From IMG/VR virus record IMGVR_UViG_2698536647_000008: a stretch of DNA of 5,033 nucleotides; one strand, written 5' to 3'. The stretch comes from a virus (lineage: Duplodnaviria > Heunggongvirae > Uroviricota > Caudoviricetes). How positions within the stretch are numbered: the first letter of the stretch is position 1; the number at the start of each line of letters is the position of its first letter. Under the pieces are notes generated by a model, which was given only the letters and a program-made list of their open reading frames with translations, was not told the DNA's origin and searched no databases. Shown here in pieces: positions 1 through 5,033 of the stretch. The translations under genes were made by a program, and so were the position numbers.

Positions 1-432
1 TTAATTAAAGTCAATTCCTGACAAGTCTAATCCGAGTGAGCAGTTCAAAATTTTATCCATTGCATTACTGGATAATACTACCTTTAGCTTTGCAACTTTT
101 GCAGGTGAATCCAAGGTACTATTCTTAGTTATTAGTGTATAAAAATCAGAAACTGGTATACTTTCAATTGTATGATCATACCCTTTATATGCAGCATAAT
201 TGAATACAGTGTCACCATTCATATCGTAAGCATGTGATTCAAGATCAATAAAAAATTTATCAGAACTAGTTATTGCAACTGGCTTACCATCTTTATAGAT
301 TTTAACAGTACCTGCATGGCCCGATGCATTAATATTAACAGTGTACTTTTGCTCACAGGAATATGTTACAGATTTTGCCATAGTAGAAAAAGAAAGCAGC
401 ATAACAATACAAGGTACAAGAACCTTTATCAT
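1..432 (-). CDS. Hypothetical secreted (periplasmic) protein, 143 aa, with N-terminal Sec-type signal peptide
   Basis: Complete ORF: ATG at 432..430, TAA at 3..1. N-terminus MIKVLVPCIVMLLSFSTMA-KS has a hydrophobic core and an AXA-like cleavage motif; no C-terminal TM segment. GGAG sits 7 nt upstream of the ATG (minus-strand reading TAA-ACCTATTGGAGTACTTAC-ATG). Last gene of the minus-strand operon, 18 nt after the holin-like gene. No family recognised from memory. Confidence 0.55.
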   Translation of the reverse strand: MIKVLVPCIVMLLSFSTMAKSVTYSCEQKYTVNINASGHAGTVKIYKDGKPVAITSSDKFFIDLESHAYDMNGDTVFNYAAYKGYDHTIESIPVSDFYTLITKNSTLDSPAKVAKLKVVLSSNAMDKILNCSLGLDLSGIDFN

Positions 433-450
433 GTAAGTACTCCAATAGGT

Positions 451-741
451 TTAGCTCCCACCAATCAAGATTATCAGTACTTTCCATATTTCATCAAGTG
501 GAACAATGGGGAGTACCACACCACATAAGGCCAGTACTGGCACAATGACGTAGTTCCATAGAATGATGAACGTCAGTACCCATCCTAAGCCCTGTCGCCA
601 AGTGAAGCCCTTACGCGTTTCTTCAAGTGTGATCTGGTTCTGTTCATGGCTGTTCTGTGCGTCCAGCTCTTGCTTACTTTGTTCTTTCTTCTGGAAGAAA
701 CCTACTCCAGTTTTGATTAAATCAATTATCATTCCAATCAT
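451..741 (-). CDS. Putative phage holin, 3-TM type (resembles the 'holin of 3 TMs' family, PF11351-like)
   Basis: 96 aa. Hydrophilic N-terminal ~45 aa, then hydrophobic segments. The motifs TWRQGLGWV, LPIVPLDEIW and a C-terminal ILIGG match, from memory, the conserved WRPFxGWV / LPxLxxxEL / LLGLGG pattern of that holin family. ATG at 741..739 overlaps the upstream TGA (740..738) as ATGA. Family assignment is by recall, not by alignment. Confidence 0.6.
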   Translation of the reverse strand: MIGMIIDLIKTGVGFFQKKEQSKQELDAQNSHEQNQITLEETRKGFTWRQGLGWVLTFIILWNYVIVPVLALCGVVLPIVPLDEIWKVLIILIGGS

Positions 742-1049
742 TCAATGATCCCCACGCAATACACCCAAAAGTGTTTTCCCTTAACGAATAGTTTTTTATG
801 TTCGATTACGTACACATCCATCTGGTCACCTTGTAGTGACCATGTAAGTACTGAACCGTCCGTTATATTTTGTTTTTTCTCATAGCAAACATTCATAAAA
901 TGCTCGATATTAATCTGTTTACTCTTTAGTACCTTCTTGAACTTATTACCAAGAAAGCATTTATGAATTGGCATACTATTAGCCTCTGGTGTATTACCAT
1001 CGAGTTTAATCTCACTGGTTAGTTCACCATAATGTTCATCAAAATTCAT
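738..1049 (-). CDS. Hypothetical protein, 103 aa
   Basis: ORF with ATG at 1049..1047 overlapping the stop of the upstream gene (ATGA, 1049..1046), and its own stop overlapping the holin start. Called on coupling and operon context only; no motif recognised. Confidence 0.5.
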   Translation of the reverse strand: MNFDEHYGELTSEIKLDGNTPEANSMPIHKCFLGNKFKKVLKSKQINIEHFMNVCYEKKQNITDGSVLTWSLQGDQMDVYVIEHKKLFVKGKHFWVYCVGIIE

Positions 1050-1606
1050 CTTGTTACCTTGAATGTTCCCTGTATACCACTCATGACTAACATCACACCA
1101 TTATTCACTTCCTGATAGAAATCATAAATTAGTTTACGGCGTTTACTTTCCCGTAGGCCGATTACACGCTTTTGTTTTTTCTTTTGAGTAGTATCTATTA
1201 ATCGTTCTTTTCCGTTTTTACCTTTGACTATCTTGTAACGACCAGAGGCCAAATTTTTCTTTAGTCCACTAATGTTACCCTGCTTCGTTAGTCTTGCTTT
1301 CGAAGTAGGCACAAATTTATCAATGGCCTTTTGTTCAACCAGTACACCATATAAGTACTGTGCCTGAACATCTTTGACCATGATTGTAGCTGTGACCCCA
1401 CTACCCCGTTTTTTATAAAAGAATAGAATTGATCGTTGAGTGAAAGGTACTGCACCTTTGTCTACGGCATTGTTCATATCTGCCTGTACTTTCATAGATA
1501 ATACTCTTGAACGCTTAATAATTTCATCTTGGAACTGTTTACCTAACTTCGTTCCTGTTGTTTTTATATAGTTCGTGACATTATCTATACCCGTTATTCT
1601 TGTCAT
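1046..1606 (-). CDS. Hypothetical basic (Lys/Arg-rich) protein, 186 aa
   Basis: ATG at 1606..1604, 4 nt after the upstream TAA (1613..1611), with GAGGT about 6 nt upstream overlapping that stop. Very basic C-terminal half (KGKNGKERLIDTTQKKKQKRVIGLRESKRRK), which may mean nucleic-acid binding. No family recognised. Confidence 0.55.
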   Translation of the reverse strand: MTRITGIDNVTNYIKTTGTKLGKQFQDEIIKRSRVLSMKVQADMNNAVDKGAVPFTQRSILFFYKKRGSGVTATIMVKDVQAQYLYGVLVEQKAIDKFVPTSKARLTKQGNISGLKKNLASGRYKIVKGKNGKERLIDTTQKKKQKRVIGLRESKRRKLIYDFYQEVNNGVMLVMSGIQGTFKVTR

Positions 1607-1610
1607 ATAT

Positions 1611-2060
1611 TTACCTCACACCCAATAAATCAGTTAAATATTGCAGTACTTTAAATAAATCCAAACGGTTTTTTGGTAATCGTGCCTTACACATTATTGC
1701 CTTATTTAAACAGTCGGGATGTAAACCAAAGTAGCTAATCAATGCTGTTTCTAAAATCGTTGCCTCTGCGTCAGATTTAACACAGTACAAAATCTTTTTA
1801 GTGTATGGCATTCCGGCTTCAATCATTTCATTAACGCACTTACTACTACCGGTATAATCAGGCCAGTTCGATTCAACTGAAGTAGACTTTAAATTCTTTA
1901 TGTCGCGTACTTTTTTATAGATTTGCTTCTTACCGAAATAGTACTCGCCAGTCTCTGGAAACTGAATAATGTAGATAAACGAAACGTAATTCCCATCTGT
2001 TACTTCTGACATATTCCACATATTAATATCGAACATCTCCCATGCTTTATTAACTCTCAC
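1611..2060 (-). CDS. Hypothetical protein, 149 aa; possible degenerate GIY-YIG nuclease-like domain (speculative)
   Basis: First gene of the minus-strand operon. The ORF begins with GTG at 2060..2058, with AGGGA about 8 nt upstream; the first in-frame ATG (2036..2034) has no spacer to a GGGAG. Segment SFIYIIQFPETGEYYFGKK shows an IY...(about 10 aa)...YxFG spacing reminiscent of GIY-(10)-YIG, followed by Arg and Glu at roughly expected distances. The nuclease call is weak. Confidence 0.5.
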   Translation of the reverse strand: MRVNKAWEMFDINMWNMSEVTDGNYVSFIYIIQFPETGEYYFGKKQIYKKVRDIKNLKSTSVESNWPDYTGSSKCVNEMIEAGMPYTKKILYCVKSDAEATILETALISYFGLHPDCLNKAIMCKARLPKNRLDLFKVLQYLTDLLGVR

Positions 2061-2100
2061 AATAAATATCCCTATATAGATTTATTATAGGTATTTATTA
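2061..2100. promoter_or_regulatory. Divergent AT-rich intergenic region between the minus-strand operon and the plus-strand lysozyme gene
   Basis: 40 bp, almost entirely A/T (aataaatatccctatatagatttattataggtatttatta). The minus strand carries a consensus TATAAT (2089..2084) upstream of the GTG at 2060; the plus strand has AATAAATA (2061..2068), one mismatch from the T4 late-promoter box TATAAATA, and AGGT 8 nt before the ATG at 2101. No convincing -35. Low-complexity AT sequence makes chance matches likely. Confidence 0.3.
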
Positions 2101-2550
2101 ATGAGTAAACTAAAAGACAGATTAAAAGAATATGAAGGTACTATCGCTTATCAAACAAAATTGAAGTACTTTCACGATAACAAATTTTGGACATACAAAG
2201 ATTCACTAGAATTTGAAACCATCGGCTACGGTCATTTACTACATGTTGGTGAAAAGTATTCAGATGGTATTACTATTGAGCAAGCGGAAAGCCTACTAGA
2301 CCAAGATATATTAATTGCAGTGCATAACGTCGAAACACTCAATATCTGGCTACCTGACGAGTGGAAAGATTTTCTTGTGATAATGATGTTCCAGTTAGGT
2401 TTAGGCGGGGTACAGAAATTCAAAAAGATGTTAGTAGCCCTTAAAGCAAAAGATTACCCGGAAGCCATCAGACAGGCTAAAGATTCATTATGGTATAAAC
2501 AAACACCTAATCGTGTTGATGCAATGATTGCAGTACTAACCAACAAATAA
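2101..2550 (+). CDS. Phage endolysin, T4-lysozyme-like (glycoside hydrolase family 24 muramidase)
   Basis: 149 aa, ATG 2101, TAA 2548..2550. Recognisable matches to T4 lysozyme: LKEYEG (catalytic Glu region), YKDSLEFETIGYGHLL against YKDTEGYYTIGIGHLL (Asp/Thr catalytic region), MMFQLGLGGVQKF against MVFQMGETGVAGF, and WYKQTPNRVDAMI against WYNQTPNRAKRVI. No N-terminal TM or SAR segment, so it looks like a cytoplasmic, holin-dependent endolysin. Confidence 0.85.
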   Translation: MSKLKDRLKEYEGTIAYQTKLKYFHDNKFWTYKDSLEFETIGYGHLLHVGEKYSDGITIEQAESLLDQDILIAVHNVETLNIWLPDEWKDFLVIMMFQLGLGGVQKFKKMLVALKAKDYPEAIRQAKDSLWYKQTPNRVDAMIAVLTNK

Positions 2551-2553
2551 CAA

Positions 2554-2584
2554 AAAGGCGATAGCATTATGTACTATCGCCTTT
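2554..2584. terminator. Bidirectional rho-independent terminator candidate between convergent genes
   Basis: Perfect 11-bp inverted repeat AAAGGCGATAG (2554..2564) / CTATCGCCTTT (2574..2584) with a 9-nt loop. T-rich on the plus strand downstream (ctttcttcttattgttt) and A-rich upstream (caaaaa, giving a U-tract for the minus-strand transcript). It sits between the lysozyme stop (2550) and the stop of the minus-strand 88-aa gene (2589). Confidence 0.6.
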
Positions 2585-2588
2585 CTTC

Positions 2589-2855
2589 TTATTGTTTCTG
2601 TTCAAGAATGGTAATGATTTTTTCAATTTTCACATCCAGATCATGGATCTGGTTTTCAAGTTTAGTTAAAGCATCACGCATCTTATTCTGATCAGCTTCA
2701 ATACGCACCATACTACTTTCCTGTACTGCTTGTTTAGTTTCCAGTTCTGAAACACGTGTAAGTAGTCCATCAGTATCTTTTGTATTGTCGCGGAATACAG
2801 TGTACAGAAGTACACAGCCAGAAATAATAAGAGCTAATATTGTACCAATGTCCAT
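2589..2855 (-). CDS. Small membrane-anchored coiled-coil protein, 88 aa (i-spanin-like architecture; function unknown)
   Basis: ATG at 2855..2853, TAA at 2591..2589. One N-terminal hydrophobic segment (IGTILALIISGCVLLYTVF), then a charged, heptad-like region (ELETKQAVQESSMVRIEADQNKMRDALTKLENQIHDLDVKIEKII). No lipoprotein partner was found embedded in the one alternative frame I translated by hand. Confidence 0.5.
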   Translation of the reverse strand: MDIGTILALIISGCVLLYTVFRDNTKDTDGLLTRVSELETKQAVQESSMVRIEADQNKMRDALTKLENQIHDLDVKIEKIITILEQKQ

Positions 2856-2895
2856 ATTATCTCGCTTATTATTATTCTTATAATGATATTTATCG

Positions 2896-3552
2896 TTAAT
2901 ATCCGGTGAAAGTAGCTAAAGCGATTTGAAAACCATTGTTGCCCATTGCCTGACGATATGTTTTCTGGTTCTTTGAAACGTACTGCAAGCTGAATGAAGT
3001 ACTGCTATTACGTCGAATAACTATTCCCGAATAACCGATTGTTTCACCATCATCACTTAAGTTGCCCGGACATTGTGACCAACAAAACCAGGGATTAGCA
3101 ACAGGGCTTGTTACTGTGATTGCAGTACTCAAATCCGTAGCAGCAGGTACAGTTAAGAAACCTTGTATACGGGGCATGGTAGCCGCCGATGCAGCAGACC
3201 ATATCAAAGTACCGGAAGCATTGAACACATCGAGATAACCAGACGTAGGTGTTGCAGTGTGCGTACTCGTCATGAATCGCCCTATCCCCGGCTGGAACAA
3301 CTCAGCACCGGGAAAACACCAGCCACCATCTTTCTGTATCTGAAACCAGTACTGCGTAGTGTTCCTGTTCACGATAGTTGCAAGTGGCAAGAAGCCAAGA
3401 GCACCACCATTACCAAAAGCACACGTAAAGCCAGTGTAATACCCCTGATCCGTCAGTGTACCCATTGCCTTAACAGCACCTGTGAGAATTGACTTGTTAG
3501 TACTGTCAATCGTCAGAGCACCCGCAGAATTATAAACTTCAAAACCTGACAT
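2896..3552 (-). CDS. Hypothetical tail-fibre-associated protein, about 218 aa
   Basis: The tracked ORF (2896..3597) begins with TTG and would overlap the upstream gene by 44 nt. I prefer the ATG at 3552..3550, which lies 1 nt after the upstream TAA (3556..3554; minus strand reads TAATATG) and gives MSGFEVYNSAGALTID... Its N-terminus resembles that of the preceding 98-aa ORF, with a further internal copy (DVFNASGTLIW). Located directly downstream of the tail-fibre gene. Confidence 0.5.
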   Translation of the reverse strand: MSGFEVYNSAGALTIDSTNKSILTGAVKAMGTLTDQGYYTGFTCAFGNGGALGFLPLATIVNRNTTQYWFQIQKDGGWCFPGAELFQPGIGRFMTSTHTATPTSGYLDVFNASGTLIWSAASAATMPRIQGFLTVPAATDLSTAITVTSPVANPWFCWSQCPGNLSDDGETIGYSGIVIRRNSSTSFSLQYVSKNQKTYRQAMGNNGFQIALATFTGY

Positions 3553-3553
3553 A

Positions 3554-3850
3554 TTACACCGTCCACTTATATACGTTGAAACTATACGTACCAGCAAACG
3601 GTGATCCCGTTGGTAGATAAATGATAGTCATTGAACCATTATTACAAATAACAGACCACTCATTAAAAACATCCGTAGATGGTGCGTAATAGGCAATCCA
3701 CCCTGTTGTTTTCATTCCGGGCACAGTGACGGTATAACTTGATGCAGTAGTAGCAGTAATTGAGTAAGTACCCATGTACCGCATATTATAATCACCGAGA
3801 TCTACTACTAATACCCCTGCACTATTCCAGCATTGTAATCCTTGTGCCAT
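3554..3850 (-). CDS. Hypothetical tail-fibre-associated protein, 98 aa
   Basis: ATG at 3850..3848 with a good RBS (AAAGGATTTAAA-ATG), TAA at 3556..3554. N-terminus GLQCWNSAGVLVVD parallels GFEVYNSAGALTID of the next gene. Thr/Ser/Tyr-rich composition is typical of beta-rich fibre or adhesin proteins. Confidence 0.5.
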   Translation of the reverse strand: MAQGLQCWNSAGVLVVDLGDYNMRYMGTYSITATTASSYTVTVPGMKTTGWIAYYAPSTDVFNEWSVICNNGSMTIIYLPTGSPFAGTYSFNVYKWTV

Positions 3851-3895: not shown

Positions 3896-4783
<888 letters not shown>

Positions 4784-4802
4784 TCAGTCAGAGGTGACTC
4801 AC

Positions 4803-5033
4803 ATGACAAAAACAGTATCAACCAGTAAAAAACCCCGTAAACAGCATTCGCCTGAATTTCGCAGTGAAGCCCTGAAGCTTGCTGAACGCATCGGTGTTAC
4901 TGCCGCAGCCCGTGAACTCAGCCTGTATGAATCACAGCTCTACAACTGGCGCAGTAAACAGCAAAATCAGCAGACGTCTTCTGAACGTGAACTGGAGATG
5001 TCTACCGAGATTGCACGTCTCAAACGCCAGCTG
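4803..5033 (+). CDS. insE: IS3 transposase OrfA (InsE), N-terminal 77 codons; truncated by the window edge
   Basis: ATG at 4803 preceded by GAGGTGA with a 5-nt spacer. Translation MTKTVSTSKKPRKQHSPEFRSEALKLAERIGVTAAARELSLYESQLYNWRSKQQNQQTSSERELEMSTEIARLKRQL matches the E. coli IS3 OrfA N-terminus as I recall it, including the helix-turn-helix region. No stop before the window ends. Confidence 0.93.
   Translation, partial: MTKTVSTSKKPRKQHSPEFRSEALKLAERIGVTAAARELSLYESQLYNWRSKQQNQQTSSERELEMSTEIARLKRQL

Follow-up and report, generated by a model that had tools for sequence, protein, structure and literature searches.

A predicted stand-alone GIY-YIG nuclease of the SegE/I-TevII type is encoded beside the lysozyme gene in a lineage of Enterobacterales prophages

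The window analyzed here is the whole 5,033-bp stretch of the IMG/VR virus record IMGVR_UViG_2698536647_000008, and represents the end of a decayed Escherichia coli prophage riddled with insertion sequence (IS) elements. Its central element is a minus-strand open reading frame (ORF) of 149 amino acids (aa), whose translation includes VSFIYIIQFPETGEYYFGKKQIYKKVRD and which belongs to the SegE/I-TevII type of GIY-YIG proteins. Read from right to left, the minus strand carries the remnant of a tail tip fibre gene, two small genes, an 88-aa gene and a terminator-like hairpin. These are followed by a plus-strand lysozyme gene of family GH24, and then by a tight minus-strand array of five genes headed by the 149-aa ORF (Table 1). 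Within this array a gap of 4 nucleotides (nt) separates the GIY-YIG gene from the next one (1606..1046), and 4-nt overlaps occur at the genes 1049..738 and 741..451. A first-pass annotation, made from the sequence alone, had placed the ORF at the head of an operon, and this is borne out by the four further minus-strand ORFs that come after it and the oppositely oriented lysozyme gene that comes before. The same coding sequence appears in RefSeq, at an E. coli locus of 99.9% identity, under the name “hypothetical protein” (WP_001446069.1).

In GIY-YIG enzymes, the tyrosines of the GIY and YIG strands are 10–11 residues apart, and the catalytic arginine lies in helix α1 (R27 in I-TevI, R39 in UvrC). 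Codon reading of the 149-aa ORF places Y30 and Y41 11 residues apart, the same spacing as from Y6 to Y17 of I-TevI. The protein also matches the Pfam family PF19835 (SegE_GIY-YIG) with an E-value of 4.3e-15 and a score of 56.5 bits (gathering cut-off 25 bits), residues 19–107 being aligned with positions 10–100 of the 123-position profile, a result far beyond what chance would give. The motif spacing from which the first-pass annotation had started is therefore real, and so are the later Arg and Glu residues that it had pointed to: these are R52, located 11 residues past Y41, and E104. The word “degenerate,” by contrast, is misleading: members of this subfamily normally carry the motif as [FV][VI]Y ... 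Y[IF]G. PHROG families of homing endonucleases match the protein as well. The best PHROG match, phrog_447 (148 positions, E-value 1.9e-13), bears the label “NAD synthetase,” which neither the fold nor the motifs support and which is likely an annotation error. A scan against NCBIfam gave no match, and sequence searches of the PDB, whether started from the protein itself or from a 13-sequence profile, returned nothing meaningful; a comparison of folds was therefore needed.

The AlphaFold2 model, built from an alignment of 82 full-length family members, has a mean predicted local distance difference test (pLDDT) score of 92.7 and a predicted template modelling (pTM) score of 0.88. It contains the α/β core of GIY-YIG nucleases, with a three-stranded sheet and flanking helices. 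When the model is compared with the PDB by Foldseek, GIY-YIG proteins rank first, with weak E-values. Among the predicted viral structures of BFVD there are 52 matches at E ≤ 1e-3, and nearly all of those that carry a name are SegE-like proteins, Seg proteins or GIY-YIG homing endonucleases. The best of them extends over 148 columns with a template modelling (TM) score of 0.72, a coverage which implies that the N-terminal extension and the C-terminal helix belong to the nuclease module of the longer enzymes too. A profile match and a GIY-YIG fold are thus both clearly present. No domain other than PF19835 is found in the protein, and in particular no NUMOD, helix-turn-helix (HTH) or Zn-finger domain. 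The C-terminal DNA-binding domain is indeed missing, as had been noted from the sequence, and only the short N-terminal extension and the C-terminal helix lie beyond the core.

Across the 82 members, which diverge down to 33% identity, the residues F28, Y41, G43, K45, W66, Y69, S72, S73, L91, E104, I108, and N119 are invariant, Y30 is kept in 81 members, and position 52 is occupied by Lys (66/82) or Arg (16/82). Alignment of the family with T4 I-TevII by hhalign (probability 97.6, E-value 3.7e-12, 88 columns) matches all the conserved residues of the family and pairs E104 with the Glu of the I-TevII HEE motif. I-TevII is listed among the active GIY-YIG endonucleases (PMC2988022), and this complete correspondence is the strongest argument for catalytic competence. 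The earlier suggestion of a minimal nuclease agrees with these data, since profile, predicted fold and conservation of the catalytic residues all identify a nuclease domain, and this domain stands without a DNA-binding partner.

The family is widespread in one bacterial order. A word-indexed search yields 91 clusters, all from Enterobacterales (Escherichia, Klebsiella, Cronobacter, Enterobacter, Pantoea, Erwinia, Yersinia, Edwardsiella, and others), 81 of which are 137–153 aa long; the precomputed PF19835 domain is present on all of them except two short fragments. An exhaustive hidden Markov model search of 1.84 billion representative proteins finds 1,126 relatives at E ≤ 1e-3. Of the 150 best, the majority measure 125–175 aa, meaning that the short stand-alone form is a common architecture and not a truncation; among the proteins closest to the SegE/I-TevII nuclease domain it is in fact the commonest, and the longer form of homing endonucleases is rarer. 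One short protein, of 157 aa, is annotated in a jumbo phage of Ochrobactrum. Purifying selection is strong, with a median ratio of nonsynonymous to synonymous substitution rates (dN/dS) of 0.095 and a maximum of 0.37 among 90 unsaturated pairs. The family alignment is not made up of frameshifted pseudogenes.

The genomic surroundings are equally constant. The comparison comprises 160 IMG/VR loci (numbered with the prefix L below), 80 of them found through the 149-aa protein and 80 through the neighbouring 186-aa protein. The GIY-YIG gene directly follows the lysozyme gene in 156 of them, that is, in 80/80 of the first set and 76/80 of the second. The four exceptions are two cut-off contigs and two internal deletions (L106 and L112), leaving 156 of 158 informative loci. 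All 80 loci found through the protein share the order tail tip fibre, small genes, 88-aa gene, lysozyme, GIY-YIG, 186-aa gene, (103-aa gene) and 96-aa membrane protein gene, the block being located within 1.5–3.5 kb of the prophage end. Chromosomal prophages at other insertion sites show the identical order. In a variant arrangement (e.g., L153–L159 and L164–L170) the genes of the 186- and 103-aa proteins come directly after the tail tip gene and the GIY-YIG gene still has lysozyme on one side and the 96-aa holin-like gene on the other, which indicates that its constant partners are genes of the lysis type.

The orientation of the lysozyme gene is less constant: in the window, as in many of the loci, it runs opposite to the GIY-YIG gene, and in others both genes point the same way. 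The GIY-YIG start codon of co-directional loci (e.g., L043, L047, L059, L070, L179) lies 2–3 nt past the lysozyme stop codon. The nuclease gene is translationally coupled to the lysozyme gene in some loci, and this spacing would place it in a late, lysis-linked transcription unit. Outside the close family, a distant 137-aa homologue is encoded three genes downstream of a lysozyme gene, and another distant homologue is not associated in this way. The same slot is occupied in L180 (4001–4903) by a 300-aa protein (P0099; also P0095), which combines the nuclease module with an N-terminal half formed by a Cys/His-rich, Zn-ribbon-like DUF723 repeat. This DUF723 and GIY-YIG version argues for a DNA-directed function. 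A fusion of lysozyme and nuclease was considered for the 300-aa relatives and rejected, the N-terminal half being the Zn-ribbon-like DUF723 and not a lysozyme.

The divergent start codons of the two genes in the window are separated by a 40-bp spacer that is a near-perfect palindrome (CAT-TAAT-AAATACCTATA...TATAGGGATATTT-ATT-GTG). An equivalent spacer is found in ~24 IMG/VR loci (e.g., L017, L021, L048, L089). The outer arms (TAAATA/TATTTA) do not vary, and covariation of the inner arms is seen in 18–24 distinct loci, with compensatory changes at 4 of the 12 pairs predicted. Folded as RNA, the window palindrome reaches -15.3 kcal/mol (z -1.81), which is only moderately better than shuffled sequences. 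The palindrome could be a regulatory hairpin that hides a ribosome-binding site (RBS) on read-through transcripts, comparable to the RBS-hiding hairpins by which T4 gates its lysozyme gene e and I-TevI (PMC2988022). A divergent promoter or operator is another possibility, as is the scar of a lysozyme inversion. As the inner arms covary rather than remaining constant, a hairpin fits better than an operator bound by a protein.

Table 1. Coordinates of the GIY-YIG gene, its motif residues and the neighbouring features of the 5,033-bp window.
Feature	Position	Strand	Basis or remark
149-aa stand-alone SegE/I-TevII-type GIY-YIG nuclease (predicted)	1611..2060	-	GTG start 2060, TAA stop 1611-1613
“GIY” strand F28-I29-Y30	1971..1979	-	Codons read; model strand 27-34
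“YIG” strand Y41-F42-G43, then K45	1932..1940	-	Codons read; model strand 39-46
R52, candidate counterpart of the I-TevI catalytic Arg R27	1905..1907 (CGC)	-	Codon read; column always basic
E104, presumed metal-binding Glu (I-TevI E75 equivalent)	1749..1751 (GAA)	-	Model helix 97-111
N119 in the conserved LNK motif (I-TevI N90 equivalent)	1704..1706 (AAT)	-	Aligns with I-TevII LNK
40-bp palindromic intergenic region with the RBSs of the lysozyme and GIY-YIG genes	2061..2100		Sequence
GH24 phage lysozyme gene	2101..2550	+	Pfam PF00959, E 1.9e-10; phrog_13211, 2e-37
Terminator-like hairpin with T run, between the 88-aa and lysozyme genes	2552-2586	-	15 pairs
88-aa protein with N-terminal transmembrane segment and coiled coil, last gene before lysozyme	2589..2855	-	ORF; PF10805 (DUF2730) recorded for orthologues
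186-aa basic protein, next in operon	1046..1606	-	Weak minor-tail PHROG match, no other family match
103-aa protein	738..1049	-	Start overlaps stop of the 186-aa gene; no Pfam or PHROG family matches
96-aa membrane protein, holin candidate	451..741	-	phrog_2024, 4e-11; weak PF11351 (GTA_holin_3TM), E 0.013
143-aa protein with signal peptide, last of the array	1-432	-	
Lambda-J-like tail tip fibre gene, C-terminal remnant (285-aa “ORF”)	3896-4753	-	Phage_Tail_Tip domain; truncated by the IS3 end at ~4720-4738
IS3 element, left end and start of orfA	~4720-5033		98-100% identical to thousands of E. coli copies

Positions 1–2809 of the window are 99.9% identical to the region between mipA and yeaG of E. 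coli AREA_C483, and a second strain carries a 75% identical version at the same chromosomal site. Apart from the IS3 end, megablast finds no match among cultured phage genomes or plasmids. A tblastn search of 50,697 deposited phage genomes gives one partial match for the 186-aa protein and none for the 96-aa protein. The prophage lineage is thus without a cultured representative in this collection, and there is no studied phage to serve as a guide. The G+C content is 33–40% over the lysozyme, nuclease and downstream genes, and 45–48% in parts of the tail-fibre region and the IS3 end.

Several features of the flanking genes are recorded for completeness. The TTG start of the 285-aa tail fibre ORF is an artefact. 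The 98-aa and 233-aa proteins (3554–3850 and 2896–3597, both on the minus strand) resemble each other at the N-terminus (MAQGLQCWNSAGVLVVDL and MSGFEVYNSAGALTIDS), and each of them matches phrog_2427. The 233-aa ORF probably begins at the ATG at 3552, 1 nt past the stop codon of the 98-aa gene, rather than at the listed TTG at 3597. The hairpin downstream of the 88-aa gene is the sole terminator-like site in positions 1–3000 and sets the tail operon apart from the GIY-YIG operon; it could terminate transcription in both directions. The 143-aa gene at the far end of the array is present, among the 160 related loci, only in the near-identical copy L015, and appears to be strain-specific cargo of the prophage end.

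Taken together, the explanation that we favour, with moderate confidence, is that the 149-aa protein is an intact stand-alone DNA endonuclease of the SegE/I-TevII type, predicted to be active and Mg-dependent, fixed in its prophage lineage and made late with the lysis proteins. The analysis shows to which family the protein belongs, what fold it has, that its residues are conserved under purifying selection and that its synteny is fixed; catalytic activity, oligomeric state, substrate, expression timing and biological role are what we infer. By analogy with I-TevI, UvrC, Eco29kI, and Hpy188I, a single divalent metal ion held by E104 (together with N119) would promote cleavage of the phosphodiester bond, with Y30 as the general base, and Y41, K45 and the basic residue at position 52 (Arg in the window protein) would stabilize the scissile phosphate. 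Because the protein has no domain to read a DNA sequence, nicking or cutting of low specificity, or directed by DNA structure, is to be expected. An oligomer may form through the conserved Trp-containing N-terminal extension and the C-terminal helix. The gene is a fixed component of a lineage of siphovirus-like Enterobacterales prophages of ~30–36 kb. It closes the tail operon directly behind lysozyme and is followed by a gene for a holin-like protein, a position that makes late expression with the lysis proteins most likely. Possible roles would be the breakdown of host or competitor DNA, or late DNA processing in the manner of T4 EndoII.

Several observations weigh against this explanation. 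The superfamily profile PF01541, which the first-pass annotation had named as the one to search, does not match the protein at E ≤ 1 (gathering cut-off 22.6 bits), whereas I-TevI and T4 EndoII do match it; the match obtained is to the sister family PF19835. Alignments of the family with I-TevI and SegG by hhalign are not significant and cover only the β-hairpin, and that with SegE is likewise short or weak, so the residue equivalence to the I-TevI active site, especially to Arg27, is tentative. The segment 47–73, which takes the place of the canonical Arg-bearing helix α1, is largely non-helical in the model. Column 52 holds Lys in 80% of the members, and MAFFT puts R27 of I-TevI nearer to K58. 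The 149-aa protein is mildly basic (isoelectric point 8.6; family median 7.7). Late expression is read from gene order only, and a scan for sigma-70 promoters finds 10 sites against 12.8 ± 4.4 in shuffled sequences, which is not above chance. Finally, L106 (3841–3990) and L112 retain a 49-aa ORF made of ~14 N-terminal and ~35 C-terminal residues, from which the catalytic core has been deleted in frame; maintenance of the prophage, at least, therefore does not require the gene.

The first-pass annotation had also offered the alternative of a decayed homing-endonuclease gene. The protein is certainly short when compared with the 205–359 aa of the Seg and I-Tev proteins, and the prophage of the window is itself decayed and full of IS elements. 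However, a functionless remnant is not expected to show the dN/dS values reported above, a constant length in ~90 clusters, 12 invariant columns over 82 sequences together with a nearly invariant Y30, or a confident compact model that takes in both terminal extensions; genuine decay looks otherwise, as the in-frame leftovers of L106 and L112 illustrate. The selection and conservation data already refute this alternative, which is almost certainly wrong. Another alternative is a homing endonuclease, free-standing or recently domesticated, that spreads itself or its flanks by cutting related phage genomes which lack it or carry another allele. The closest characterized relatives of the protein, I-TevII and the Seg-like proteins, are homing endonucleases, the gene is located where gene order and lysozyme orientation shift between lineages, and a two-domain DUF723 version sits in the same slot of another prophage. 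Moreover, L107 (3545–3978) and L108 (3527–3978) are 91–92% identical in the flanking DNA and have no detectable similarity exactly across the GIY-YIG ORF, the two alleles sharing 37% protein identity: this is a precise cassette replacement. Such exchange is nevertheless an exception. Where the lysozyme and 186-aa proteins of two loci are both at least 85% identical, the nuclease is also at least 85% identical in 150 of 155 pairs, and its identity correlates with that of the two neighbours (0.61 and 0.53) no worse than they do with each other (0.52). Apart from this one swap, the pairwise identities do not support unusual mobility. Tracking of the neighbours and the lack of a DNA-binding domain argue against an active homing endonuclease, and the presence of the gene in nearly every informative locus, rather than sporadically, and strong purifying selection across the lineage point the same way; we regard this alternative as unlikely. 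Descent from a homing endonuclease, or the gain of a targeting domain by some members, is plausible, and relatives with added domains are represented by I-TevII, P0109 and P0099 (DUF723).

A nuclease expressed in the lysogen, serving prophage defence, superinfection exclusion or abortive infection by cutting incoming phage or host DNA, would suit a cassette at the prophage end, a typical site of cargo genes. L008 and L009, for example, carry an AbiGi gene 2.5 kb farther downstream, and in the window the terminator-like hairpin splits the cassette from the tail operon. Against this, the only match of the 149-aa protein in PADLOC-DB 2.0 is a weak one to the generic homing-endonuclease model PDLC03702 “HEase” (E-value 4e-4), and eight neighbouring proteins have no match there. 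The gene is fixed and not variable cargo, in many loci it is co-directional and translationally coupled with lysozyme in a late operon, and its likeness to the defence nuclease PD-T4-3 is confined to the nuclease fold. The abortive-infection effector suggested by the first-pass annotation is accordingly not upheld, and a defence role in general seems quite unlikely. The fold may instead have lost its activity and been re-used for regulation or for the binding of DNA or RNA, such as the palindrome upstream of its own gene. The non-canonical Arg-bearing helix, the Lys that replaces Arg in most members and the conserved palindrome directly upstream would accord with this, and I-TevI, which represses its own promoter, offers a precedent (PMC2988022). 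However, the two Tyr residues, the Asn and the presumed metal-binding Glu vary hardly or not at all, which is unexpected in a protein that only binds. The active T4 I-TevII also has Lys in the column aligned with position 52, and the covarying inner arms of the palindrome fit a hairpin better than an operator. An inactive fold is therefore very unlikely.

The association of the predicted endonuclease with lysis genes is consistent and mildly unusual. It invites the proposal that the lysis module includes the nuclease as a functional component, produced along with the endolysin, its translation perhaps gated by the hairpin, and acting at lysis, for example by destroying the host nucleoid or unpackaged or competitor DNA. 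We consider this improbable; if true, no earlier GIY-YIG nuclease would have had a role dedicated to a lysis cassette. More speculatively, the nuclease might cut at the palindrome and thereby drive the inversion of the lysozyme gene between lineages. Literature searches on PF19835 or SegE-like proteins, and on GIY-YIG proteins together with lysis genes, found no paper on the family. The present assignment gives a name and a testable activity to a family of “hypothetical proteins” widespread in prophages of E. coli, Klebsiella, Cronobacter, Pantoea, Yersinia, and other Enterobacterales, and a minimal nuclease without a targeting domain, fixed beside an endolysin, poses a concrete question about nuclease use late in infection. 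The gain is incremental, as Pfam already covers the domain and the GIY-YIG nuclease label is already attached to some members.

Among the known systems, the N-terminal catalytic domain of T4 I-TevII belongs to the same subfamily and has in common with the window protein F, Y, Y-I-G-x-K, N-W-x-x-Y-x-S-S-S-K, E and L-N-K. I-TevII scores 21.6 bits against PF19835, just below the cut-off, whereas the window protein lies above it. The two proteins differ in that I-TevII is a site-specific enzyme of 258 aa, encoded in the nrdD intron and equipped with C-terminal NUMOD1 and NUMOD3 domains; the window protein has no DNA-binding domain, has ~10 extra residues between the YIG and NW motifs, and is encoded outside any intron by a fixed prophage gene. 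The Seg-like free-standing homing endonucleases of T4-like phages (e.g., a 359-aa one from Cronobacter phage leE and a SegE-like one from phage Bp7) are 31–35% identical over residues 9–125, and it is their N-terminal part that superposes on the whole 149-aa module with the TM score given above. They contain 100–200 further residues for DNA binding and are encoded by genes that occur sporadically among conserved ones, unlike the gene of the window.

The likeness in sequence to the catalytic domain of I-TevI (PDB 1LN0, 1MK0) is limited to the GIY-YIG hairpin, and the Arg27 helix of that enzyme has no clear counterpart in the model. PD-T4-3, a GIY-YIG defence nuclease specific for DNA containing 5-hydroxymethylcytosine (PDB 9U75), is 248 aa long, has an extra domain and shares no genomic context with the window gene; no PD-T4-3 model is among the PADLOC matches of the window protein. 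T4 endonuclease II (DenA) belongs to PF01541 and not to PF19835, and no similarity to the window protein is detected at the sequence level. A stand-alone GIY-YIG enzyme of small size, it attacks the DNA of the host (PMC1564403), and by analogy it would be the closest functional counterpart of the window protein. The settings of the two genes differ, DenA being an early gene of a virulent phage with modified DNA, while the gene described here lies in the late region of a temperate phage.

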